DNA of 64,000 bases from positions 4,499,922 to 4,563,921 of the forward strand of contig OY970367.1 of NCBI GenBank assembly GCA_963718635.1. The letters are read 5' to 3'. Every line of letters begins with the position of its first letter. Positions within the stretch are counted from its first letter, which is position 1. Position numbers and translations under genes: made by a program. This document shows, in pieces, positions 8,060 to 55,328 of the stretch. Source of the DNA: an uncultured Planctomycetota bacterium (GTDB lineage: Bacteria > Planctomycetota > Planctomycetia > Gemmatales > Gemmataceae). Below the pieces are notes generated by a model that worked only from the letters and a program-made list of their open reading frames with translations, searched no databases and was not told the DNA's origin.

Positions 8060-8770
8060 TTATTTTTTGTCGGCCAGCAGCATCTTTGCTTTTGAGGGAT
8101 GCCGATCGACGTAGCGAGCGATGCCGGAGAAGAATAGCAGCATCTGCTCTGCGCCCTCCTGGGCGAGGCGCGGGGCCGCCGGGCCAATCAGACGCATTAC
8201 CAGTGCAGCCGTGCGGCTGTCCGTTTGCAGAAAGACTTCAACCTGATGGCGGATCAAAGGCTCGCCGTCTTCGTCCTTGACCACTCCGTGACGCAAAATT
8301 GCTACGGCTTTCACGGGAACGAGCGGCAGCAGTCGGCCAGGGCGGACCTTTCCCTCGGCATACCAGATTCGGCCTTCGCCATTCTGTGCGACGGCACTCC
8401 AGGTAAGTTCGCTGCCTTGCTCATCTTTCCAGGTGAACTTGCCGTCTTTCGATGCCGTGATGTCAATCGCGGCAACTTTAAGACGTTGCCAGGCCAGGCA
8501 AACCCGTTCGGGATGATCGAGCAGCCAAAGATAGCTTTCGGCGGTTGAAGCGAATTCTTCAGGAGGCGCCATGGCCGTTAACGTTGGCGCCTGCATAACT
8601 TTCGTGAGATTATCGCGGACGGTCGCGGGAACATTGGCAAGCGCAATCGGCAACTTATCAGAAGCTGAAGCGTACGAGCGTACCGGAAGAGCTAACTCCT
8701 GAGCCGAGGCCGCCTTGAGACAACCAGCGACAACTGTCAAAGCCAACAGCAGGGAACCGGTGCGATTCAT
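8060..8770 (-). CDS. Secreted hypothetical protein
   Basis: I place the start at the internal Met (MNRTGSLLLALTVVAGCLKAASA, a signal peptide). The longer upstream extension is rich in basic residues and looks like junk. Confidence 0.5.
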   Translation of the reverse strand: MNRTGSLLLALTVVAGCLKAASAQELALPVRSYASASDKLPIALANVPATVRDNLTKVMQAPTLTAMAPPEEFASTAESYLWLLDHPERVCLAWQRLKVAAIDITASKDGKFTWKDEQGSELTWSAVAQNGEGRIWYAEGKVRPGRLLPLVPVKAVAILRHGVVKDEDGEPLIRHQVEVFLQTDSRTAALVMRLIGPAAPRLAQEGAEQMLLFFSGIARYVDRHPSKAKMLLADKK

Positions 8771-8936
8771 GGAACCCTCGGCAAACGGTCGCGGATGTTT
8801 ATCCTCTCTTAGATCGAATGGGCAACCCCTGTAACGTGAATGATTCTGAGTCAACAACTTCGGACAACTTGGATTCCGTGTTAGCGCCTGCGGCCGTGTT
8901 CGATTGATTCGGCGACAGTTACGGTCAGCGGTTAAG

Positions 8937-9764
8937 CTAGTCCGTCGCGCTGCTTGCCTCAAGTTGCCGGGCGCGGAACATCCAGTACAGGACCGCTTTG
9001 ATTTCAAACGGCTTCATGTCGGGTTTCAGCGAAAGAATGCGGGCAATAATGCCCGTCAGATGAGGGGTCGCCCAACTCGTTGCCGGCTCCTGACTGAAGG
9101 GGCCAAGATAGCCGCGGCTGTGTGCTTGAAACTCGACTGTTTCTCGCAGGAGATAAGCAAATTGCAAGGGGTCGGCAAAGAGAGCCTTATCCACTGAAAG
9201 CAGAGTAGTTGCAAAGGCGGCCGGATAACTGCGGGTTAGGGGATGGTCGTTATGAGCCGCAGCGACAATTACTACATCCTTGAAGTAAGCCTGCTCGATC
9301 GCTCGTTGAAAGAGCACGCGCTTCTGCATCTGCACCATTCGGTTTTCGGGAACGCCGAGCGATAGGTTGACCACCTTGCATTTCCAGACGTCAACCGCAT
9401 GCTGGATCGCGCGAATGACCGTCTCGACTTCCGAAGTTCCCGCAGCGCCAAAAACGTCTGCGCTAAACAGGCGTGCTCGCGGCGCCAAACGCAGAATGAT
9501 GTCGGCGACCGTAGTGCCGTGCGGCGACGATTGCTTCCCCCCATCGGGGAGCGGGTCGGGAGATTCAGCGCGGAAGATAGCGCCCTCAATGGGATATATT
9601 GCGTGGTGAGCGTCTTCAAACCTCGCTTCGATAACCGCACGTTCAACGCCGCTGTCGATCAATGCAATGCGAACGCCTTCGCCGGTGGCGCGCTCATTGC
9701 GCAGCAGGCGGTCGGGCGTCAGCATGGCAATCAGATCGTCAAACACATTGTTGGTTTGGCTCAT
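8937..9764 (-). CDS. S8-family (subtilisin-like) serine peptidase, no signal peptide
   Basis: Catalytic triad blocks ALIDSGV (Asp), HGTTVADI (His) and SWATPHLTGI (Ser). The start is taken at MSQTNN, 12 nt downstream of the response-regulator stop. Confidence 0.75.
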   Translation of the reverse strand: MSQTNNVFDDLIAMLTPDRLLRNERATGEGVRIALIDSGVERAVIEARFEDAHHAIYPIEGAIFRAESPDPLPDGGKQSSPHGTTVADIILRLAPRARLFSADVFGAAGTSEVETVIRAIQHAVDVWKCKVVNLSLGVPENRMVQMQKRVLFQRAIEQAYFKDVVIVAAAHNDHPLTRSYPAAFATTLLSVDKALFADPLQFAYLLRETVEFQAHSRGYLGPFSQEPATSWATPHLTGIIARILSLKPDMKPFEIKAVLYWMFRARQLEASSATD

Positions 9765-9775
9765 GGAGACTTTTT

Positions 9776-11011
9776 CTAAACGCCGGTTATCTCGTCGAGC
9801 AATTGGCGCAAATTTTCGACCAGCAACGTGCAATGTTTAACGGCCGACTCTCCATGCCGAAGTGCCAAGACCCGCACGGCCTCCGCCAGCCGTAACGACG
9901 CGCTCGCATCAATGACTGAGTTGGCCGATGCGCTCAGGCCTTCTTTCAGGCGTTCGAGCACGGCGGCGGACGGTGGGTCCGCGGTCTCATCATCCAGCGC
10001 CAGGGTTAGCGATTGGCTCGCTTGCAAAGCCGCTTCAACGGCAATGAAGAGGGTGCGGCGCGTCTGCCGGTCTGACATGGCCTGTCGCAAGAGCTCGGCG
10101 CTGAATTCGGAAGCCGTAGCGACCGAGGAACGATCTTCATCACTGAAGGGAAGGCCGTCTTTTCGATCGAAGAGTTCAAGGACGACAAAGGTGCCGGCAG
10201 CAACTTGAATGGGTGCAGCCAGCAAGTAGCGGTGGTCGCGTTCAAAAGGCTGGAGTTGCAGGGTCCCGTCAGCGCTCGCTTCGTTCAAACTGAGCGAACA
10301 TGGAGCTTGCATCGAAACGACGCTGGCGGCCAGCGACTGGGCGAAAGGGATTGTCGGAGGGTCCAGTGGGTTGCCGTCGCTCGCAAAAGCACGGAAGAGT
10401 TCCGGCCCTTCCGCAGGCATGTGGCGTGCGACAAGGACGCCATCGGTCGCGCCGGTGGTGCGCAACAGAAATCGGAATAGGCTGCGGATCGCTTCTGGCA
10501 GAGGCGCGGGATCATTCATCGCAGCGGAGGACTGCACCAAAGGCAATACTTTCTCGACCGCTTCGCGAAACGCGAAGAGGCTGCGATTGAACTGGCGCTG
10601 ACGCTTTGCGGGTATGATCCGGTCGAGCTGGCGGCGTACCGCCGCTAAGAATGTCTCGCGATTCAAATCTTGATTTTTATCGAGGTAGTCGCGCACTCCC
10701 ATGCGCAGTGCGTCGAGAGGAGTCGCTTGATGAGCAAACCCCGTAACCATAATCGCCACGATATCGGGATGGAATTCCGCAAGATCTTCGAGGAGTTGTA
10801 AACCATCGGCCCCCTGGCCGAGATTCCAGTCGAGTATCGCCAAATCGACCGAATGGCGGCTGGCATGAAGCAATGCCGATTCCGCGTCGGCCACCGCATG
10901 AACCTCGCATCGAAGATGGGCCGCCGACAACCAATCGACAAACGTACGGCGGATCGATTCCTCGTCGTCCACAATCAATATGGATTCAATCATGTCCGCA
11001 CGCGGATTCAT
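9776..11011 (-). CDS. Response regulator: CheY-like receiver domain + C-terminal GAF-like domain
   Basis: ILIVDDEESIRRTF...DLAILDWNLG...IVAIMVTGF gives the phospho-acceptor Asp context. The C-terminal ~250 aa resemble a GAF/PAS fold. The true start is probably MIESIL at ~10993. Confidence 0.75.
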   Translation of the reverse strand: MNPRADMIESILIVDDEESIRRTFVDWLSAAHLRCEVHAVADAESALLHASRHSVDLAILDWNLGQGADGLQLLEDLAEFHPDIVAIMVTGFAHQATPLDALRMGVRDYLDKNQDLNRETFLAAVRRQLDRIIPAKRQRQFNRSLFAFREAVEKVLPLVQSSAAMNDPAPLPEAIRSLFRFLLRTTGATDGVLVARHMPAEGPELFRAFASDGNPLDPPTIPFAQSLAASVVSMQAPCSLSLNEASADGTLQLQPFERDHRYLLAAPIQVAAGTFVVLELFDRKDGLPFSDEDRSSVATASEFSAELLRQAMSDRQTRRTLFIAVEAALQASQSLTLALDDETADPPSAAVLERLKEGLSASANSVIDASASLRLAEAVRVLALRHGESAVKHCTLLVENLRQLLDEITGV

Positions 11012-14479: not shown

Positions 14480-15141
14480 TTGCCGGCGTATTGCTTAAAG
14501 GACAGGAAGGGATTGATCACGATGAAATCCGAGCCGAGCGATATACCGAGGCTCCACGTGCGCCCTTCCATCGAATCATTCGCTCGCATTGTGGTCGGCT
14601 ACCACGGGTGTACGGAAGCTTTCGCGAAGACGCTGCTTCTGAGAAAGAAACCGATCAATCAGTGGCTGCCGAGCACGAATGAATGGGACTGGCTGGGCAA
14701 TGGCATCTACTTCTGGGAACACGCCCCTGAGCGTGCGCTGCGATGGGCGCACGAGCGCTGCGCAAGAACTCGCTGGCGACCTGCTGTGCTCGGAGCCTAA
14801 TCCAACTCGGTCGTTGCTTCGATTTGCTCAATGAAAGCATTACCTCACTACTGCGTGATACTTATGATCAGACAGCCTTTTCATTCGCGGAATTGGGTGG
14901 CGAACTTCCTAAAAACACTGGCCGTGACTGGAAAATGCGGCATCTCGATCAACTTGTAATCAACCAATGCATCAATGGTTTACAAAAGGAAGGAAGAGAG
15001 TTTGATACGGTGCGAGGAGCTTTCCTGGAAGGCGAGCCGGTCTATCCAGGCGCTGGCTTTTCGAGCGGAAGCCATATCCAAATCGCCGCGCGAAATTCTG
15101 CTTGTATTCTCGGAGTCTTTTTGCCAAACTTACTTATATGA
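14480..15141 (+). pseudogene. Hypothetical protein split over two overlapping frames (apparent frameshift near 14750-14800)
   Basis: ORFs 14480..14800 and 14743..15141 overlap in different frames. No domain recognised. Confidence 0.3.
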
Positions 15142-15386
15142 ATAACCCATTCCTTACGACTGAAGAACTGGCAGCGGATGCTCGAGAAGCCTTACGTAAC
15201 AGACCGAAGTTAACGGGCCGAGAGTATTTTGTTCAAATGATTCGAAATGGATTCATCAACGAATATGGGGAAGTGACACGCATTATCGGCGGTGAAGCGG
15301 AGCCGACGCGCGACTACAAGAATTATACGCTCGAACGACTGGATGCGAGGAAGCTGAGAAAGAAGAAGGTTTCGAAAACGGACTGA
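15138..15386 (+). CDS. Hypothetical small protein
   Basis: MNNPFLTTEELAADAREALRNRPKLTGREYFVQMIRNGFINEYGE...; no known domain. Confidence 0.4.
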   Translation: MNNPFLTTEELAADAREALRNRPKLTGREYFVQMIRNGFINEYGEVTRIIGGEAEPTRDYKNYTLERLDARKLRKKKVSKTD

Positions 15387-15407: not shown

Positions 15408-16474
15408 TTATTTCTTCAGCCACTTCTCGCAAAAGTCGATCGATTCTCGCCGTTGGTCGGCCGTAACGCTATGACCAACACCTTCGGCCACGTTGATTTT
15501 CAGGTGATCAGAAATTTTTGCCTCTGCGTATGCATTTTCGACCGTTTTGAAAGCGATGCGAGCGCCTTCAATCGGGCAGTTCGGATCTTTTTCACCGTTC
15601 GCAATATACAAGGGTCTGCCGACGAATAACAGCAGCATGTTCGGGCAATCGTATTCATCCAAAATTCCCGGAATGACTTTGCTCCAAAGCGTTCGACAGA
15701 CCTTTGCATTCACCTGCGGCTCGCTGAGATCTTTGGCAGCCGCCTCGTGAGCCGCTTTGATCGTATTAGCCCGTCCTTGCCATTTCTCATTAGCCAAGCT
15801 CCAGCGAAAGCTCTGTACGCCGATCAACGGTGCAGCAACAGCGATGCGCTCATCGACTGAGGCAGCCAACCAGGTTTCAATACCGCCCATTGACGTGCCT
15901 GACATGCCAATCCGTTTCGGGTCAATTTCGGGGCGAAGCTGAAGGTAATCGACAAGTCGCCATAAGTCCCAACAGGTATCGTAATAGAACGGGTGTTCCA
16001 TCGAGGTTTTCGGCTCTTTCCAGGCGCGGGCAATGGCGGCAACATATGCAGCCGAGCCCTTGGCGCCACCGGAGCGTTCGCCGTGGTAACGGGCATCGAT
16101 CGCGATGCCGACGATTCCGCGCTTGGCAAATTCTGTGAGCCAGGAACGCTGCGACTCTTTGGTGCCGCCTGTACCGTGCAGAACGATCATGGCGGGATAT
16201 TTTCCTGCTTTCGAAGGTCGCACAATCAAGGTCGGCACACGCTCAATGCTGCCATCGGACTTTTTTTCACTAGCGAAACTAAAGTGTTCGGTGATAAGGC
16301 CGTCAGCTTCTTGAGCCACAGCAAGCTCTTTGACGTCGGCGGGAATGATTGGACGATCGAGCATTTTCCGAAACGCGTCGCGGGTTTGTTCAGCGGTGAG
16401 AGCTTTTCGTGTATCCTCGCAATGTGCGAGCACGGGAGCAACAACCAACAGCAAAAGGCAGCGGAAAAAATGCA
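15408..16474 (-). CDS. Secreted alpha/beta-hydrolase (dienelactone hydrolase / acetyl-xylan-esterase-like)
   Basis: Signal peptide MHFFRCLLLLVVAPVLAHC. A GxSxG nucleophile elbow GTSMGG. Consistent Asp/His context (NGEKDPNCP, VGHSV). Confidence 0.75.
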
Positions 16475-16513
16475 TAGCGGATCCTAAAGGATAATGAGTA
16501 TGCCGTGAACAGG

Positions 16514-19500
16514 CTACTCGCGCAAGAAACTCGCCCATTGCACATCAGTTCGGCTATGGGGGTTAATCTTTTCGGTGGTTTTGACCGCACGCACGGCTTC
16601 AGCGGCGAGCGCGCCGGCTTGCGGCGTCTCACTAATTACTAAGTCGTGAAACTCGCGATAGAGCACTATCTCGTTGGCGGAAGGTGAGACGCGAATTTGG
16701 AATTCAGGAATCAATTCCTGGGCAGTTTCCATCAAGCGCTTGCCGTGTGCATCGGACGTTACGCCAATAAGAAGGCTTTGGGCCTCTTGCCTTACAGTGG
16801 GCCCGAACGGTTCGGGCGTGCTCTCGTCGTAAGCGAGAAGGATTTCGCGCTGCGCCAGTTGCGCATCGGGCCGGTTGCGGAAAAACTCCTCGGCAGGCGT
16901 ATGTTGCCCAAGGCGTGCATCGACGAAAGCACGAAACTGAGCGATCAATAGTTCCTTGAAGCGAACGCCGCTCTCGTTCATCGACAGGCAGACATTGACA
17001 AGCCCTCGAAGATGACGGCGGATCTGTTGCTGTAAATGATCTTCTAATTCGCGGATCGCTTCCGGAGGTTGCTCGGCAATGAAACGGTCGGCGGCTTCGA
17101 GTAAATTACGGCAGCCCGAAGGCAAGATCGGGTGATCCTGCGATGGTCCCGGATCAGAACTCGCCTCGGCCATTTTTTGCATTTGGCCGGCCACTTCCGA
17201 CATACGCTGACGGCAAAGGCTGACTTCACGCAAGTATTCCGGCGCGTTGCCGAGCATCTGGCGATAAATGGAAATGATGTAACGCGAAAGCAGGAACTGC
17301 AAGCGTTTGCCGGGCCAATTGAGCATCCAGGTGTTCAGGTCGGCCACGGCAGCCGCTCGGCGCTTCTCCGCCTTAAAGAACCCGCCTTGCGAAAGGGCCC
17401 CGAGCATCGCCAACATTCGGCTGAACTCTTCTTCCAGTTCACGGCTGCGTTTGAGATTCTCTCGCTCGTTTTCGTCGATTAACGATTGCACGCGCTCGGT
17501 GCAAAGACGAATCGCGTCCTCGGCGCCGGCCATCCGAAACTGCGGCTGCTCGACGAAATGGACCGCCATTTTAGCGAATTTTACTTCGGACTCTTTCGTA
17601 AGCGGTTTCGCAATTGCTTCGAGCAGTCCCACTAGACGACCGGGTGTGTATTCTTCATCAGCGCCGGGTTTGCCGACAATCTGAAGAACGCGTTCGACGA
17701 TGGCGAGAACGTCGTTCACTTCCATTTTCGCCGCCAAGGCCGGTTCGTGCGGAAGGTTTTGTGCCTCAGCTTCGATGAGCACCTCCGGCTTTTCGTTCAA
17801 CGCATTGGCAAGGCCTGCTTCGAGAACGGATGAAAGAGACGCAGGGTCGAGTTGCTGTTTTTTCCATTGGTCATTGAACCATTCGGCAACAGCGCCGCGA
17901 ATCGGCGCGGCGTCCTTAGTGCACCACTGTTGGATCGTGCGCGCGGCGAATCGCTCGGCTATCGTGTCCAAAAGTCGCTGGCGAGGCCAGGTAATGCGAT
18001 AGAAGCCGAAAGACTGCAGCGACACACCGACCGGCGCCCGCTGTTTTTGATAGGCGGTCCGCGCTTCGTCGATGCCGCGGCCAAGAGGGGTCAGCGTTTC
18101 CTGATAAATCAACCCGGCAGCGCGATCGGCATTTGGCGGCGCGGTTTTCGATGGGGATCGCGGCAGACTCAGCAAGACGCAGCGTTCGAATGGCCGTTCC
18201 GGATCAGCTACCGAAGGAAGCCGTGTGTCAAAGCGTGCTTCAAACCGTGCCGATGGCTGACTGAAATGATCGATCTCTGCGAGCGTGGTGCAAACATTGG
18301 CGATCGGCAGCGTTTTGGGGGTAGTGCGTTCCACGCCGGGTGTCAGAAGCAACCCAGTCAGATGCGGCTTGGTAAATCCCATTTGGCGCATTTCTTGACG
18401 AATGATGTAAGCGAGATCGATTAACATGCCGGCGCCGGTTCCGCCGCAAAGGGACGAGGCAACGTAGACGCGAGGGCGATTTCCGCGAATGCCAAGCTTC
18501 GTCTGGCGATCGGCTTCGAGCAACACGTCGTCGGACAAAAACGTTTCAAGGTCTTTGCGGATTTTCTGCGAAATCGTCGGATAATGATCGAGCAATGCCA
18601 ACCGTCCGAGCGCGCGTATCCCGTCGGTCGCCGGCTCTCTAGGGATCCGATAGAGCGTTTCGTTGCTCATCCAAGTGTCGGGTGAGGGCAGCCCTTCACG
18701 CTTAAGATAATGACCGGGGCGATGGAGCTTGGCGTGGCAAACCTCGTCCATGCTGAGCGCTTCGCGTTTTTCGGCATTGGTGGCACTGTGAACCGTCTCC
18801 AGGTCAGTATCGATGAAGAGCCATTTCCAGTGCGGAAAGTCGCCACGTCCCAGGCGATCGTGCAAGTAGGCGCGTAGCCGCTGCATCACTTGCAAGCCGA
18901 CCTTGCCGGCGCCGACTATGTAGACCGGCATCAATACACCTTCGCCATTCTTTTCGGGTGGTGCGATGCCAAGGCTTGAGATCTGTCCCGTTTCAAACGC
19001 AGTCGGCCGCTGTATGGTTATGGGCGTGGCCATCGGCGTCGGCGAAGGACCGCGTGCCGCAGCTTGCGACGCTGCCGAACCGGGAGTGACCAACCGCGGC
19101 AGGCCTTTCAGAATGACCGGCGGCCGTTGGGTTAAGGGCGATGGCAGAGGGCTCAATTCCGGATTGGGGGGCGTGAACATCGGCTGGGCCGAGGCGGTGT
19201 CGGGCGTCTTGCCGGGGCGGAAGTTAGGCACCGTCCGTAGGGGATCTACTGTCGGCGCTACGGGCACGATGGGGACTCGTGCTGGGGCCGAGTTGCTCTC
19301 ACGGATGGCGCGGACAAAGTCGCCGCAGGTAGGCCAACGGTCTTCCGGCTTCTTGGAAAGCGCCCTCGAGACGGCCTCCCGTTCATTAGGCGGCAACGAT
19401 GACACATCAGGCACGGCCGAGATATGCTGCATCAAGAGATGCCGGGTGTTCGTTCCGGAAAACGGCCGCACACCCGTCAATAATTCCTGATAAACGATGG

Positions 19501-20110
19501 CTAAGCTATATTGATCGCAGAAGCGGCTGATCCAGCCTTCGAAGGTCTCCGGCGCGGCATAGACGGGCGTAACCCCACCTGTGACAGCGGCGCGTATGCC
19601 TTCAAAATCTTTCGCCAGCCCGAAGTCGGCAACTTTGACGTGGTTATGGACGAGAAAAAGATTCTGCGGCTTGATGTCGAGATGCTGAATCTGATAGTGC
19701 GAATTCATCAGGTCGAGCACTTCGGAGGTCTCGTCCATATAACGAAGCAATTCATCGCGAGGCAGCCCGACCAGTCCCTGATTACGGCATTCGTGAAAGC
19801 GGTCCCAAAGATTGCGATCCGCCAGCTCCATCACGATCATTAGCTGCCCGGCGATAATGTCGAACCGCTCGATCGACAGAATATAGGGGTGCCGGATGGT
19901 CTTGACGCGATGAAGGGCTTTGAGCTCCTGCTCAGCGGCCTTGTTGTCATCGCCTGCCTGATCGAGATCGCCGTAAACGAACTTGATGGCCTTGAACAGG
20001 CCGCCCGGTGCTTCCGCCTTCCAAACCTCGCCGTACCCGCCCCGGCCAAGGCGCTCGATGAGCCGGTAGCCAGGCAGCGGCTCGGCATGTTGCATCAAAC
20101 GCGTGTTCAT
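16514..20110 (-). CDS. Ser/Thr protein kinase fused to a tubulin/FtsZ-like GTPase domain (Tubulin_2-type), 1198 aa
   Basis: N-terminal kinase: GRGGYGEVWKA, AIKFV, HLDIKPQNLFL, DFGLA, APE. A Pro/Ser-rich linker follows. Then MPVYIVGAGKVGLQVMQRL and ...VASSLCGGTGAGMLIDLAY, which match the tubulin/FtsZ nucleotide-binding G-box (GGGTGSG-like). A long helical C-terminus follows. Confidence 0.85.
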   Translation of the reverse strand: MNTRLMQHAEPLPGYRLIERLGRGGYGEVWKAEAPGGLFKAIKFVYGDLDQAGDDNKAAEQELKALHRVKTIRHPYILSIERFDIIAGQLMIVMELADRNLWDRFHECRNQGLVGLPRDELLRYMDETSEVLDLMNSHYQIQHLDIKPQNLFLVHNHVKVADFGLAKDFEGIRAAVTGGVTPVYAAPETFEGWISRFCDQYSLAIVYQELLTGVRPFSGTNTRHLLMQHISAVPDVSSLPPNEREAVSRALSKKPEDRWPTCGDFVRAIRESNSAPARVPIVPVAPTVDPLRTVPNFRPGKTPDTASAQPMFTPPNPELSPLPSPLTQRPPVILKGLPRLVTPGSAASQAAARGPSPTPMATPITIQRPTAFETGQISSLGIAPPEKNGEGVLMPVYIVGAGKVGLQVMQRLRAYLHDRLGRGDFPHWKWLFIDTDLETVHSATNAEKREALSMDEVCHAKLHRPGHYLKREGLPSPDTWMSNETLYRIPREPATDGIRALGRLALLDHYPTISQKIRKDLETFLSDDVLLEADRQTKLGIRGNRPRVYVASSLCGGTGAGMLIDLAYIIRQEMRQMGFTKPHLTGLLLTPGVERTTPKTLPIANVCTTLAEIDHFSQPSARFEARFDTRLPSVADPERPFERCVLLSLPRSPSKTAPPNADRAAGLIYQETLTPLGRGIDEARTAYQKQRAPVGVSLQSFGFYRITWPRQRLLDTIAERFAARTIQQWCTKDAAPIRGAVAEWFNDQWKKQQLDPASLSSVLEAGLANALNEKPEVLIEAEAQNLPHEPALAAKMEVNDVLAIVERVLQIVGKPGADEEYTPGRLVGLLEAIAKPLTKESEVKFAKMAVHFVEQPQFRMAGAEDAIRLCTERVQSLIDENERENLKRSRELEEEFSRMLAMLGALSQGGFFKAEKRRAAAVADLNTWMLNWPGKRLQFLLSRYIISIYRQMLGNAPEYLREVSLCRQRMSEVAGQMQKMAEASSDPGPSQDHPILPSGCRNLLEAADRFIAEQPPEAIRELEDHLQQQIRRHLRGLVNVCLSMNESGVRFKELLIAQFRAFVDARLGQHTPAEEFFRNRPDAQLAQREILLAYDESTPEPFGPTVRQEAQSLLIGVTSDAHGKRLMETAQELIPEFQIRVSPSANEIVLYREFHDLVISETPQAGALAAEAVRAVKTTEKINPHSRTDVQWASFLRE

Positions 20111-20280: not shown

Positions 20281-20688
20281 ATGGCGAAAGTCTATGCTTT
20301 ATCGCTCAAACAACCTTGGGCGGAGTTGGTTGTTTCCGGCAAAAAGACAATTGAAGTGCGCTCCTGGGCGACCAAAATTCGGGGCCCGGTGCTCGTTCAT
20401 GCGGCCCGCATCGCCGACCCACGTCCCGAGGCATGGAAATGGATTACCGACGATATGCGACCGCTGACCGAGCTGACGGGCGGCGTTATCGGGCAGGTTG
20501 AGTTAGCAGATTGCATCGCCTATCCTGACCAAACAAAATTTGCAGCCGATCGCAACCGGCACTTGAATGATCCGGCCTGGTTTCAAGAACGCGGGTTATT
20601 CGGCTTCATTTTCAACAATGCAGTGCGCCGGCCATTTCATTCTTGGACGGGCAACGTACGCTTTTTTACCGTGGAAGTTGACGACTAA
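20281..20688 (+). CDS. ASCH (PUA-like) domain protein
   Basis: ALSLKQPWAELVVSGKKTIEVRSW is the ASCH N-terminal signature. Confidence 0.65.
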   Translation: MAKVYALSLKQPWAELVVSGKKTIEVRSWATKIRGPVLVHAARIADPRPEAWKWITDDMRPLTELTGGVIGQVELADCIAYPDQTKFAADRNRHLNDPAWFQERGLFGFIFNNAVRRPFHSWTGNVRFFTVEVDD

Positions 20689-20726: not shown

Positions 20727-21434
20727 GTGAAATTGCTTGTGAGTGTCCGGTCGTGCAAGGAAGCCGAAGCCGCGTTACTCGGTGGAGCGGATCTTATCGA
20801 CATCAAAGAGCCAGCTCACGGGCCATTGGGCCGCGCTTCCGATGAGACGATTTCGGCCATCGTGGCGATTGTAGCAGGCCGGGCGCCCGTTAGCGCAGCG
20901 ATGGGCGAGCTGAACGATCCCACAATTACAGAATCGCACTCATCACCCGATTTCATCAAGTTTGGCTTGGCCGGATGTCGTAACCTCGACTGGCGCAACA
21001 AGCTGCAGCAGTGGCGCGCGGCAACATCAGCCCTTGTCGTTCCGGTCGGCTATGCAGATCATCACCTCGCGGAGGCGCCGTCGGTCGAGGAAATCGTTCA
21101 ATTCGCAATCGAGAAGCGCTTCCCGGCTTTTTTGATTGATACGTTCGACAAAACGAGTGGCGCGTTGTTCGATTGGCTTTCGGAATATCAACTTGGCGCC
21201 ATTGCCGCCCGACTTCGACAAGCGGGGGTCGCTTTTGCTGTGGCCGGGTCCTGTCGCATCCACCATTTGCCGTTGCTGCAATCCATTGAACCGGCTTGGC
21301 TAGCGGTGCGTGGCGCCGTCTGTCGGGAGTTTGATCGTAACGCCGAAGTTGATAGGGTGCTAGTCCACTCGCTGAAGCTGAAGCTGATGAAATTCGCTAG
21401 TCGAACGGACTCCGTCGATAGCGCGTCCGACTAG
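20727..21434 (+). CDS. DUF556 / (5-formylfuran-3-yl)methyl phosphate synthase-like (MfnB-like) protein
   Basis: MKLLVSVRSCKEAEAALLGGADLIDIKEPAHGPLGRAS matches the N-terminal consensus of the MfnB/DUF556 family, which is linked to the H4MPT/methanofuran pathway. Confidence 0.5.
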   Translation: MKLLVSVRSCKEAEAALLGGADLIDIKEPAHGPLGRASDETISAIVAIVAGRAPVSAAMGELNDPTITESHSSPDFIKFGLAGCRNLDWRNKLQQWRAATSALVVPVGYADHHLAEAPSVEEIVQFAIEKRFPAFLIDTFDKTSGALFDWLSEYQLGAIAARLRQAGVAFAVAGSCRIHHLPLLQSIEPAWLAVRGAVCREFDRNAEVDRVLVHSLKLKLMKFASRTDSVDSASD

Positions 21435-29709: not shown

Positions 29710-31740
29710 TTGAACGCCGTCCGAACCTCTCGGGTCCATTTTTTCATGCATCGCGAAGTCTCTGATGTCGACGATCTGTTCGGGCGAGCCGAAACTCTTG
29801 GCCTTTATCTGTTGACGGCCGGTCTCGCTCTGTTGATTGGCCGTGATCTCGCTCCATCGGTTTTGCCTTGGCTTGGGCTCGAGTCGATGTTTGCGGGGCG
29901 TGAACTCTTTGGATATCGCTATGCTCTTCTGGCGGCCATCATCGGCGGCGCTCGGATCCTTTTTCATTCGCTGGAGGCAATGTTCGAAGGCCGTTTCGTT
30001 GCGGAAATCGCCATCGCCGTCGCGGCTATCGGCGCCATTTTGTTGCGCGAGCCCTTGGTGGCTGCAGAAGTCATATTTATCGCTCAGCTCGGCGAATGCC
30101 TTGAGGCCTGGACCTTAGCCCGCGCTCAGCACGGCATCCGCAAACTGGTGGAAGTTTTTCCTCAGCGTTGCTGGTTGCTGCGCGATGGCCAAGAAGTTCG
30201 CGTTTTGATCAACGAAGTTCGCCGGGGCGACAAGGTTGTTGTCAAGCCGGGGGGCAAGATTCCGGTTGACGGAGTAGTGCTCGAAGGCGAGTCCTCCGTA
30301 GATGCCAGCGCGTTGACAGGCGAAAGTATCCCGCTCGATCGCGTTCCTGGCGATGCGGTCTTGGCAGGCAGCCTCAATCAATTCGGGCAACTGACGATTG
30401 AAGCGAAGAAGGTTGCGGAAGAGACAGTTGCCGGCCGGGCTATCCAATTGACCGCACAGGCCCTGCGGAATAAAGCGCCAATCGAACGAACGGTCGATCG
30501 CTATGCTTCCTGGTTTCTACCTGCGGTGCTAGCCGCCGCAATGCTGATTTTCTTGCTGAATGTCGTTTACCAAACGAGCCTCCGTCCGGCGGAAGTCCGC
30601 CTTTCTTTCAACGTAGCAGCCCGGCTTAGCCTTTATCCGGCGCTGGCGGTCCTAGTAGTGGCGTGCCCTTGCGCATTGGTATTAGCGACGCCAGCGGCCG
30701 TGATTGCTGCGCTCGGCCGTCTGGCCGGCACCGGCATCCTTATCAAAGGCAGCATCGCGCTGGAACGCTTGGCACAAGTTCAGGCATTTGCATTCGATAA
30801 AACGGGCACACTGACGGAAGGCAAGCTGGAGCTCGGCGACATCATTGCGTTCAACAATCTAACCGACAACGATATTCTTCGCACGGCAGCCTTGGCCGAG
30901 CAAGGGAGTGAGCATCCGCTTGGCAAGATGATCGTTGACGAAGCGCGTTCGCGCGTTGCTCATGAGAGCCGTCGCCAGATTTCAAGCTTTTCCCGGCGGA
31001 GGAGTCGGCGCGGATGATGATGGCGCCGCCATACTTGTCGGCACCCGCCGGCTTTTAGAAGAGCAGCATGTCGGAGTCTCCGCGTCCGCAATTGATGCCA
31101 TTGCCAGACTTGACGAAACAGGTCAAACGTCTCTGTTGGTCGCACGCAATGGGGTTCTGCTTGGCATCATCGGCGCTCGAGACCGCGTTTGCGCCGATGC
31201 GGCCGACGTGTTGCAGGAATTGCGCAACGCCGGAATCGAACAAATCACCATGTTGACCGGCGACCGTGCTTCCGTTGCCCGAACGGTCGGCGAACAACTT
31301 AAAATTGATGACATACGCGCCGAGCAGCTTCCTAATGAAAAAGCCGATTTAATAGCAGCCAATCATGCAAGAACATGCTACGTCGGCGACGGCATTAACG
31401 ATGCGCCAGCGCTGAGCTTGCGCCTCAGTGGGGATCGCTGTGGGCCGAGGTACCGAGCTGGCCGCAGCGTCGGGCGACATTGTCGTTCTCGGTGAACCTC
31501 TGCGCTATCTGCCTTTGCTCTTGCGCTTATCGCGCGAGACAATGCGGTTGATTCGCCAGAATATCCTTATCTTCGCATTCGGCGTGAACATCGTTGGCAT
31601 CGTCTTCACCGGCTTGCTTTGGCCGCTCTTCGCAACGTCACCCGAGCTTTACGACAAGGCCCCGCTGGTGGGCGTCATTTATCATCAGCTCGGTTCGCTG
31701 TTGGTCTTGTTCAATTCGATGCGGCTGCTCGCATTCGAAC
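29710..31740 (+). pseudogene. P1B-type (heavy-metal) P-type ATPase, interrupted by two frameshifts (~30950-31010 and ~31425)
   Basis: TGES, CPC (VACPCALVLATP), DKTGTLT, SEHPLGK, MLTGDRASVA and VGDGINDAPAL are all present, but spread over three frames (29710..31017, 30935..31495, 31428..). There is no stop between the ATPase C-terminal TM helices and the downstream SPFH domain. Confidence 0.7.
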
Positions 31741-53391: not shown

Positions 53392-55328
53392 TTAGTCTAT
53401 GTAGAAAAATTCGCTTGCATTCAACAGGGCGAGGCACCATTCCACGACAGCGCTTTCGTTTGGTGACGAAACGCTCTTGCTCCCTTTGTTTCCGAGGGCG
53501 GTCGCCAAATCTTTTGGGTTCGCCGGGGTGAGAGCTTCTTCCCGTTTCGATAAGTAATCCCGCGCTGCCTGCCGTTCTTCGCTGGTGATAGATCGTTGGA
53601 ATGCAAGCAGCCAGCCTCGCGAAATCAAGGTTTCGCGCTCGGCGTTGCATTCGCGCAGCAACCGGCCCGCCATATAGCGAGCCTGTTCGATGGCGACTGG
53701 CCCGTTCAACATGGTCAACGCCTGCGAACTGACGACCGTGTTGTCGCGCCGGCCTTGGCTTTCAATCGGCAGCGACATGTTGAACGTTTCAAAAAAAGGC
53801 AACGTGATCGAACGGCGCACGACGAGATAGATGCCCCGCCGGTTGAACTGAGCCGGGTCGTCCGAGATTTTCCAGTTCTTATGGATCAGCGTATCGAGCG
53901 CCTTGGAGTCGATGGGAGGCACCACGGCGGGGCCGTACATTTCCAGGTTAAGCGTACCGCTGGCCGCGTGAAGGTGATCCCAAACAATCTCCGCTTCGAG
54001 ACGCCGGCGCGGGAAGCGCGAGAGCCATCGCGCATCGGGGTCGGATAGCGCTTGAGCGGGTGTGGCAGTCGCTGCCATTCGATAAGTGTTAGAGGCCATG
54101 ATCAGCCGATGCAGATGCTTCAGGCTCCAATTGTTTCTGACCAGTTCGCGCGAGGAAGTCGAGCAATTCGGGATGGGTTGGCGGCTCTCCTTGCAAGCCG
54201 AAATCGTTCGGCGTTCGCACGAGGCCATTGCCGAAGTGCCACTGCCAGACGCGGTTGGCAATCACGCGGGCGGTAAGCGGATTTTCCGATGAAGTCAGCC
54301 AGCGCGCCAGGTCCGACCGGCGTTGGCCGGATTCATTTTTTCGAGAAACGTCGAGCGCTTTGCCGCCGGGCAGCGACGTACAAAGAGCCGGCTCTGCGAC
54401 AGCGAGCGGAGCGTCGATTTCACCTCGCCTTAACAGGCGAACTTCACCAGTTTGAGGACGCGCAGTCAAGATCTTCGCCACACCGCTTTTGGTGTTGAAC
54501 ACCTTCGGCTCGCTAGCGGCGAAGATCGCTTGCAGCCCGAAGTAATCCTCCTGACTGACAGGGTCGTATTTATGGGCATGGCAGCGACGCAGCCGACAGT
54601 TAGGCCGAGAAAGGCGGCGCCGGTCGTGTCAGCCAGATCGGTAAGCCGCTGGTATTCGATCACCTTCGGCCGAGCGATGCCCCCTTCAAAGGCGAAGGGG
54701 CCCACGGTGGCAAAGCCGGTCGCCAGCTTGGCTTCTTCCGAATCGGGAAAAAGTTCATCGCCGGCGATCTGCTCTTTGATGAACTGGTCGAAAGGCTTGT
54801 CCGAATGGAATGAGCGGATCACATAATCGCGGTAGAGAAACGAATGGGGATAAAGCGTGTCGAGTTCGTAGCCCGAACTGTCCGCATAGCGCACGACATC
54901 GAGCCAATAGCGCGCGTAACGCTCGCCGTAGTGCGGGGACTCAAGCAGTTCATCAACCACGGTCTGCGAGTTGCCGGGACCTATCTCGGGCAGCGCTTGG
55001 AACGCAAGTATTGCTTCGGGAGTAGGCGGCAACCCTGTCAGATCAAAGTGAATGCGTCGATAGAAAGTCGTCCGATCGGCCGGAGGCGCGGGCGTCAGAT
55101 GGTTTTCCGTCAATTTGGCAAAGATAAAAGCATCAATCGGATTGCGCGCCAGGCTTTATCTTTGACAGGCGGGATAGCAGAGTCCGTGATCGGTTGAAAT
55201 GCCCAATGCCTTTTCTGCCGCTCTTTCAAATCTACCTTGCTGCCAGCCTCGGGGTCAGCCAAAGCCGTAACGGTCGACACCAACCAAAGAAGAACAATAA
55301 CGCTCGTTTTCATGAAGTCTCGCTGCAA
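53392..55328 (-). pseudogene. DUF1549/DUF1553 (PSD1-type, no PSCyt1 head) protein fragmented by three frameshifts
   Basis: Pieces in four ORFs: a signal peptide + KRHWAFQPI (55110..55328); FDLTGLPPTPE (54466..55113); LARWLTSSENPLTARVIANRVWQWHFGNGLV (54089..54502); the C-terminus ...EWCLALLNASEFFYID (53392..54261). Confidence 0.7.

Follow-up and report, generated by a model that had tools for sequence, protein, structure and literature searches.

The stretch of DNA analysed here, 64,000 nucleotides of contig OY970367.1 from an uncultured Planctomycetota bacterium of the family Gemmataceae (the window), carries on its reverse strand a gene in which a Hanks-type serine/threonine kinase is joined, through a proline-rich linker, to a tubulin/FtsZ-like module of the FtsZl1 type (Table 1). 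The gene is a single open reading frame (ORF) that begins with ATG, encodes 1198 amino acids and contains no internal stop codon. A protein identical to its product is present in the NCBI/ENA records (P0001), more than 100 full-length homologues span 99-100% of the non-kinase query, and the start codon is credible because the protein begins where the consensus of 91 homologues begins. The original prediction, made from the sequence alone, had described an intact gene of this length, and this description stands; each of the motifs that it quoted was located at verified residue positions. Searching the window gave no second copy of the kinase or of the tubulin-like domain. Upstream and divergently oriented lie an ASCH-domain gene and a gene for 4-HFC-P synthase, a methanofuran-pathway enzyme, followed by radical SAM, UvrD and response-regulator genes, and an alpha/beta-hydrolase gene of DLH/AXE1-like type lies downstream.

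Table 1. Features of the kinase-tubulin gene, its neighbours and the related loci compared with it. Residue numbers refer to the 1198-residue protein.
Feature	Position	Strand	Residues or basis
Complete coding sequence: kinase, linker and FtsZl1 tubulin-like module	16514..20110	(-)	single ORF, 1198 amino acids plus stop
Hanks-type Ser/Thr kinase domain	19286..20068	(-)	15-275; Pfam Pkinase
G-loop GRGGYG	20030-20047	(-)	22-27
AIK lysine	19982-19984	(-)	Lys43
Catalytic loop HLDIKPQN	19661-19684	(-)	143-150 (D145/K147/N150)
DFG	19619-19627	(-)	162-164
Kinase motif segment VTGGVTPVYAAPE	19547-19585	(-)
Pro/Ala/Thr/Ser-rich linker, presumed flexible tether	18935..19285	(-)	276-392; Pro count, homologue alignment
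Tubulin/FtsZ-fold core with predicted GTP binding: S1-S6, H7, inferred S7 and H9	17924..18934	(-)	393-729
Loop after inferred H7, at the T7-equivalent place	18020..18040	(-)	691-697; column conservation profile
All-helical insert or stalk with two very long antiparallel helices	16799..17923	(-)	730-1104; AF2 model
Conserved helical motif ExPxFRLAGAEEAI	17510-17551	(-)	854-867
C-terminal alpha/beta subdomain, inferred second half of the tubulin 'activation' subdomain	16517..16798	(-)	1105-1198
Invariant PHSRxD tail motif	16544-16561	(-)	92 sequences
Alpha/beta-hydrolase (DLH/AXE1-like), downstream neighbour	15408-16538	(-)	Pfam
ASCH-domain gene, divergent upstream neighbour	20281-20688	(+)	Pfam
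4-HFC-P synthase, divergent upstream neighbour	20727-21434	(+)	Pfam
PSD1/DUF1553 protein	53392-54261	(-)
Tandem A/B paralogues	L007, L008, L009, L012, L016, L017, L030, L039, L053, L074
ScpA (SMC kleisin) gene directly downstream	L082 11597-12328; also L009, L025, L026, L029, L031, L036, L047, L048, L067	same strand

The N-terminal part of the protein is matched by the Pfam Pkinase profile (PF00069) over residues 15-259 with E = 3e-31 (109.2 bits; cutoff, 31.7 bits). As had been predicted, the set of Hanks-type elements is complete, from the G-loop and the lysine of AIK to HLDIKPQN, DFG and the APE motif (residues 186-188), and these catalytic motifs are almost invariant across 92 family members. 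In the catalytic loop HLD replaces HRD; the pattern H.D[IVL]KP.N was matched in 75 of 78 family sequences, all of which displayed HLD. Judged by its motifs, the kinase is of the non-RD class, yet still a Hanks-type family member, and it is predicted to be catalytically competent and cytoplasmic. A non-RD loop is typical of kinases that need no phosphorylation of the activation loop; the threonines of that loop (VTGGVTP) are conserved in the family. When the protein was used to search the sequences of the Protein Data Bank (PDB), only kinases were retrieved, the best being bacterial serine/threonine kinases (STKs) and PknA (PknA, E = 2e-20).

The module that follows the linker matches Pfam Tubulin_2 (PF13809, the FtsZl1 family) at residues 398-726 with E = 8.5e-40 (137.5 bits; cutoff, 27 bits), and the match runs over positions 2-355 of the 356 in the profile. 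The Pfam Tubulin profile PF00091 did not match the window protein at E ≤ 1; a precomputed match to it exists on some relatives, and was flagged as faint for one of them (P0116). An AlphaFold2 (AF2) model of residues 385-1198, built from a 92-sequence alignment, has a mean predicted local distance difference test score (pLDDT) of 94.7, a predicted template modelling score (pTM) of 0.84 and no segment below a pLDDT of 50. With Foldseek, the top 50 PDB matches of this model were tubulin, CetZ or FtsZ without exception, each at a probability of 1.00. According to the model, therefore, the module has the two-domain tubulin/FtsZ fold, with a Rossmann-like GTPase domain, helix H7 and a C-terminal subdomain. 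The domain lies where the original prediction had placed it, at about residues 390-650, but that span was too short: it reaches to about residue 729 and appears to resume at about 1105-1198.

The signature GGTGAG that first drew attention to this domain might still have been a coincidence within some other, non-GTPase fold. A profile of the tubulin-like domain run with HMMER against all PDB sequences retrieved no tubulin or FtsZ and gave two chance-level matches (E = 0.6 and 1.2), PF00091 is unmatched, and hhalign of the domain profile with Escherichia coli FtsZ aligned 41 columns at 28% probability, covering S1-T1-H1-S2-T2 only, an alignment that serves as an aid to register and not as proof. 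As far as sequence profiles reach, no solved structure of the FtsZl1 type is detectable, and the sequence-level bridge to FtsZ is absent from the PDB search. Nevertheless, a chance motif deserves practically no credence and was rejected, because all the top 50 Foldseek matches belong to the tubulin superfamily; the E-value of the Tubulin_2 match and the presence of PF00091 on some family members speak against it as well.

The nucleotide-binding loops could be assigned residue by residue. The segment MPVYIVGAGKVG (residues 394-405) is the T1 region, with GAGKVG at 400-405, and SLCGGTGAGMLIDLAY contains GGTGAG at 556-561, which forms the T4 loop (CGGTGAG, 555-561). It had been called a close match to the tubulin/FtsZ signature, rightly so: six of the seven positions agree, Cys555 occupying the [SAG] slot. 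The hhalign register places T1 on 'VIGVGGGG' and T2 on 'NTD' of E. coli FtsZ, whose sequence was verified. Conservation was counted over the 92 sequences, and it amounts to 80% or more, up to full invariance, at the positions named here: G400-x-G402-x-x-G405 in T1, I-D434-T435-D436 in T2, G497-x-R-x-x-G502-R503-L-A in T3, G556-G-T-G-x-G561 followed by D565 in T4, and an H7-type motif L-G677-R-x-x-D681-x-x-R684. In the FtsZl1-type loops GAGKVG and CGGTGAG, conservation at G, G, T and G reaches 90% or more. The spacing from G to D is equal in 'FGAAND' of FtsZ and 'LGRxxD' of the family, as read from the sequences and not from a superposition. The phosphate-binding loops T1-T4 and the guanine-contacting H7 motif are thus intact by their conservation throughout the family, and the module is predicted to bind GTP. 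Between T2 and T3 the window protein contains a large insertion.

The T7 loop is a different matter. In FtsZ and tubulin this loop, NxDxx(D/E) after H7, drives the GTP hydrolysis that is coupled to polymerisation. Residues 685-699 of the family, which follow H7 as located from the order of secondary-structure elements and the spacing of motifs, contain no conserved column, the acidic residue included. A classical FtsZ/tubulin protofilament with a polymerisation-activated GTPase is unlikely because the canonical T7 loop appears to be unconserved, and the label 'cytoskeletal' in the original prediction is not borne out. The loops T1 to T7 that were to be looked for in a structure prediction are thus found in part, namely the fold, T1-T4 and the H7 motif, but not a conserved T7.

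The model offers an arrangement for the remainder of the module. Its elements follow the order S1-H1-S2-H2-S3, inserts, H3-S4-H4-S5-H5-S6-H6-H7. After H7 come one long strand (model residues 313-323) and a helix (326-345). The next 375 residues or so are entirely helical; two of the helices, 50 residues (475-524) and 71 residues (530-600) long, form an antiparallel pair, and further helices extend up to 712. The C-terminal end is built as strand-helix-strand-strand-helix (727-796), so that the final 90 residues or so are alpha/beta. H7, the T7-equivalent loop and the two halves of the C-terminal subdomain were placed from secondary-structure order, counts of aligned residues and motif spacing. 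In the simplest mapping, S7 and H9 would precede the helical region and S8-H10-S9-S10-H11 would follow it; the helical insert, about 375 residues long, thus appears to divide the tubulin C-terminal subdomain in two. In 2010 no correspondence with FtsZ could be established for the C-terminal domain of FtsZl1 or for its T6-H7 elements (PMC2875224), a question that this mapping, if correct, would answer in part. R1187 and D1189 of the PHSRxD tail are invariant in the 92 sequences, and could conceivably substitute for the missing T7 residues.

Between the kinase and this module, the linker contains 26 prolines among its 117 residues (22%) and is otherwise of Pro/Ala/Thr/Ser composition, in agreement with the Pro/Ser-rich linker first described. 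It could be aligned in only 14 of 91 homologues, and in the family its length varies from 62 to 235 residues with 17.7% proline. The other segments have diverged to very unequal degrees: the median identity between the window protein and the family members reaches 70.5% in the kinase and falls to 39.9% in the tubulin core, 26.9% in the helical region and 30.6% in the C-terminal subdomain. Measured by these identities, the constraint on the kinase is much stronger than that on the remainder of the protein.

The apparent lack of a conserved T7 loop raises the question of whether the module assembles at all. By analogy with the logic of ROCO/LRRK2, it could be a monomeric or constitutively dimeric sensor of GTP and GDP that would switch the kinase allosterically. 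The absence of helix H8 from the secondary-structure order of the model is consistent with such a switch, as is the position of the helical insert of about 375 residues, within the subdomain responsible for the longitudinal interface of FtsZ and tubulin; the literature, too, allows for an FtsZl1 without filaments (PMC3160578). However, a disordered linker of 62 to 235 residues would be a poor allosteric conduit, and the tandem paralogue pairs present in some genomes (see below) suggest hetero-association. We know of no member of the tubulin superfamily that works as an isolated monomeric switch, and consider this alternative quite improbable.

The fusion is not peculiar to the window. Searching with the non-kinase part gave more than 120 clusters, nearly all of them proteins of 1150-1280 amino acids with Pkinase and Tubulin_2 domains and 99-100% query coverage, from sources named Gemmataceae, Planctomycetia and Tuwongella. 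An exhaustive phmmer census gave 2,691 representatives when the threshold was E ≤ 1e-3; a limit of 1e-10 left 1,333 of them, and one of 1e-30 left 451, for the most part from Gemmatales. In the top 150 of this census, most matches begin near residue 320-400. In species-representative genomes 338 relatives were confirmed, and the best 80 of the 338 come almost all from Gemmatales/Gemmataceae (Gemmata, Fimbriiglobus, Urbifossiella, Frigoriglobus) or from other Planctomycetia, often in several copies per genome. As judged from these sequences, the whole architecture is conserved across hundreds of planctomycete proteins and the fusion is obligate, since nearly every full-length relative has both domains. 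One 843-residue protein (P0086) was considered as a natural form devoid of the kinase and was rejected as a frameshift artefact: two overlapping Pkinase fragments precede it, and the locus (L083, 5059-8532) is a frameshifted full-length gene on a contig of long-read style. Relatives are annotated at NCBI as 'tubulin-like doman-containing protein'.

The kinase-tubulin architecture has been known since 2010, and the window gene is one more intact orthologue. Makarova and Koonin came upon FtsZl1 through kinases implicated in FtsZ phosphorylation, described four planctomycete proteins with an N-terminal kinase, and proposed a role in membrane remodelling (PMC2875224). In their account FtsZl1 combines an FtsZ-like head, with T1 and T4 loops, an extended coiled coil and a helical C-terminal region, and most of its operons contain partner genes for vWA, P-loop GTPase and OmpA-like proteins, separate protein kinase (PK) genes being frequent (PMC2875224). 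Santana-Molina et al. noted the kinase fusion of Tubulin_2 proteins again in 2023, together with the absence of the FtsZ_C/Tubulin_C domain (PMC9871819). A survey of planctomycete kinases in 2024 found the tubulin-like domain to be the commonest accessory domain among those that occur solely in cytoplasmic STKs, and FtsZ to be absent from Planctomycetota (PMC11032199). Hence the statement in the original prediction that such fusions had been noted computationally in planctomycetes, and were uncharacterised, is correct. The present analysis adds, modestly and by inference, the split activation subdomain, the missing conserved T7 loop, the much closer conservation of the kinase than of the tubulin-like part, and an A/B paralogy with scpA synteny.

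This paralogy came from the comparison of 84 loci, 81 of them clustered and three inspected in addition. In at least ten, two full-length paralogues, A and then B, stand in tandem on the same strand, with a spacing from a 40-nucleotide overlap to 190 bp. The motifs of the kinase and of the GTP loops are preserved in A and B alike, but the G-loop consistently reads GRGG[FY]G in the A copies and GSGGFG in the B copies, and the two paralogues show 67% identity in the kinase against 30% in the remainder. The window protein is of the A type, by its G-loop and by its scores of about 900 bits to A copies as against about 600 to B copies. An ASCH gene lies upstream in 33 of the 84 loci, a 4-HFC-P synthase gene in 32, and scpA directly downstream in 10. 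The genome of the closest relative has its A copy beside 4-HFC-P synthase and its B copy about 20 kb away, adjoining scpA and near a SpoIIE phosphatase gene; at L082 a SpoIIE/PP2C phosphatase gene lies two genes past ScpA. Locus L009 would show the ancestral order, in which 4-HFC-P synthase and ASCH are followed by A, B and scpA. The linkage to scpA may be a functional tie to chromosome segregation or simply inherited gene order. For the ASCH and 4-HFC-P synthase genes, synteny is seen to be conserved across the loci, and a functional link is not implied. Partner genes for vWA, P-loop GTPase, PK or OmpA-like proteins did not recur across the 81 clustered loci and were not found in the three further ones. 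The alpha/beta-hydrolase was rejected as an operon partner, because among the loci searched it is seen only in this window. Its ORF shares 25 nucleotides with the end of the kinase-tubulin gene, stop codon included, only if the first ATG is used; from its second Met (16475) it would start with the signal-peptide-like MHFFRCLLLLVVAPVLAHC, and the gap would then be 38 nucleotides.

These neighbours bear on the suggestion that the protein could be an anti-phage or conflict component, a defence-type kinase coupled to an NTPase sensor. The PADLOC models for the mad6 and PD-T4-6 kinases match residues 8-278 with E = 1e-38 to 1e-40, NCBIfam MADS6 gives a weak match, and FtsZl1 operons elsewhere carry vWA and GTPase genes, sets of which resemble some conflict systems. 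Yet none of the NCBIfam, PADLOC and PHROGs matches reaches beyond the generic kinase domain, which leaves the 800-residue non-kinase part unmatched, and every NCBIfam score is far under its curated cutoff (75.3 bits against 460 for MAD6). Moreover, the neighbours are housekeeping genes whose synteny extends across an order, not those of a variable defence island, and the window locus has no partner genes. The defence and phage readings were rejected because PADLOC and PHROGs match the kinase only, and a role in defence must be regarded as extremely improbable.

The most likely mechanism, to which we assign a probability of roughly 0.45, is that of a GTP-regulated, self-associating FtsZl1 scaffold that positions an active kinase. 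The Pro-rich, flexible linker of about 115 residues would tether the cytoplasmic kinase to the FtsZl1 module, which would bind GTP. Depending on the nucleotide, the tubulin-like head and the helical stalk would self-associate, either with their own copies or, in the genomes that have one, with the tandem B paralogue. This association would concentrate or position the kinase domains, which could then trans-phosphorylate the conserved threonines of their activation loops and, subsequently, conserved cellular substrates. The tubulin-like part would thus serve as a scaffold for regulation and localisation, and the kinase would be the output. The unequal conservation points to the kinase as output (70.5% identity against 39.9% in the core and 27-31% in the stalk and C-terminus, and 67% against 30% between A and B). 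For self-association speak the tandem pairs, at ten loci or more with the motifs kept in both copies, and the fact that, to our knowledge, all characterised members of the tubulin superfamily act through homo- or heterotypic contacts. The process served is probably a housekeeping one, cell cycle or envelope, and not defence, in view of the ASCH and 4-HFC-P synthase synteny (32-33 loci), scpA downstream (10 loci) and the restriction of defence-library matches to the kinase.

Several points weigh against this scaffold mechanism. The trans-activation step is weakened by the HLD (non-RD) catalytic loop. The positions of H7, of the T7 equivalent and of the split subdomain rest on inference and not on a superposition of coordinates. 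In the 64-kb window there is neither a B paralogue nor scpA, and the vWA, GTPase and OmpA partners are absent from the locus; synteny within a single order may in any case reflect inheritance instead of functional linkage. Reviews regard the function of FtsZl1 as unknown and its filaments as possibly not formed (PMC3160578), and in the literature searched no experimental study of any FtsZl1 protein was found.

The roles of the two parts could also be reversed. PknA phosphorylates FtsZ in trans in mycobacteria, and in a parallel manner the fused kinase might phosphorylate the linker or the tubulin-like module, in cis or in trans, as the built-in regulator of an FtsZl1 effector of membrane remodelling, division or segregation that would be driven by GTP and perhaps form a non-canonical polymer. 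The way in which FtsZl1 was discovered, the membrane-remodelling proposal and the PK genes in its operons (PMC2875224) agree with this idea, and so do the many potential phosphosites that a Thr/Ser/Pro-rich linker offers and the position of scpA directly downstream in 10 related loci. Planctomycetota, moreover, lack FtsZ (PMC11032199), for which such an effector would be a candidate replacement. However, a kinase far more conserved than the module is not expected if its own fast-evolving partner were the sole substrate. The hypervariable linker has no conserved phosphosite, the T7 loop appears to be unconserved, and no membrane-targeting segment was identified in the protein. A regulator kinase of this kind is therefore possible, if rather unlikely.

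Should a GTP-regulated assembly indeed position the kinase, a cytoskeleton-type GTPase would be joined directly to phosphosignalling on one polypeptide, a link of which we know no experimentally characterised case in bacteria. Cell division in planctomycetes proceeds without FtsZ, and no relatives of the tubulin superfamily other than the FtsZl1-kinase fusions have been reported from them. A bolder and very doubtful proposal would be that, as the sole tubulin-superfamily protein of these FtsZ-less bacteria, this 'split tubulin', a hitherto unrecognised kind with a complete fold, the helical stalk inside its activation subdomain and no T7 loop, forms A/B heteromers where both copies exist and is a GTP-gated platform that couples segregation (through scpA) or division to Ser/Thr phosphorylation and partially stands in for FtsZ. 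The window gene provides a clean template for structural and biochemical work and not a discovery, the family having been described 15 years ago.

Elsewhere in the window, the description of the region as frameshift-rich is borne out in part, the kinase-tubulin ORF itself being intact. A P-type ATPase is split across 29710-31017 and 30935-31495 (+); the first ORF contains E1-E2_ATPase and positions 2-44 of the Hydrolase profile, and the second positions 44-187, so that the break falls at 44. Either the assembly contains an indel error at this place, or the gene is a genuine pseudogene. A Peptidase_S8 match is truncated (profile positions 1-173 of 288) at the junction of the ORFs 8060-9007 and 8937-9833 (-). 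Three overlapping ORFs in three frames, 14480-14800, 14743-15141 and 15102-15386 (+), have no Pfam match. The PSD1/DUF1553 protein (53392-54261) and the 4-HFC-P synthase are in keeping with the planctomycete origin of the window.

Comparison with known systems sets the protein apart from each of them in some respect. PknA and PknB are its closest solved kinase relatives and share the full catalytic core and the conserved activation-loop threonines. In contrast to them, the window protein has no transmembrane segment or PASTA domains, in accordance with a cytoplasmic location, its kinase is non-RD (HLD), and the tubulin-superfamily domain is on the same polypeptide. ROCO/LRRK2 proteins offer an analogy, since in them, too, one chain contains a Ser/Thr kinase together with a domain that binds GTP and a helical region for dimerisation. 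Nevertheless, their GTPase fold is unrelated (Ras-like Roc and not tubulin/FtsZ), the order of domains is reversed, and homology is limited to the kinase. With FtsZ, tubulins, BtubA/B, TubZ and PhuZ the module shares T1 GxGxxG, T2 (N/D)TD, T4 GGTGxG and the H7 G-x3-D motif, and the tandem paralogue pairs of some related genomes recall alpha/beta-tubulin and BtubA/B. It differs from this superfamily in lacking a PF00091 match and a conserved T7 NxDxx(D/E) after the inferred H7, and in the large insertions that interrupt its C-subdomain and separate T2 from T3. CetZ of archaea (PDB 3zid and 4b45), which forms protofilaments and has a canonical T7 loop, is only 12-13% identical in sequence to the window module, and contains neither a kinase nor the helical insert of about 375 residues. 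The planctomycete subgroup of FtsZl1 shares with the protein a near full-length profile match, the T1/T4 head, helices of coiled-coil type and the N-terminal PK. The window locus differs from the FtsZl1 operons in having no vWA, P-loop GTPase or OmpA partners, its PK being present as a fusion. With respect to the account of 2010, the model suggests that the module does possess an H7 and a C-terminal subdomain, the latter split by helices, and that its extreme C-terminus is alpha/beta.

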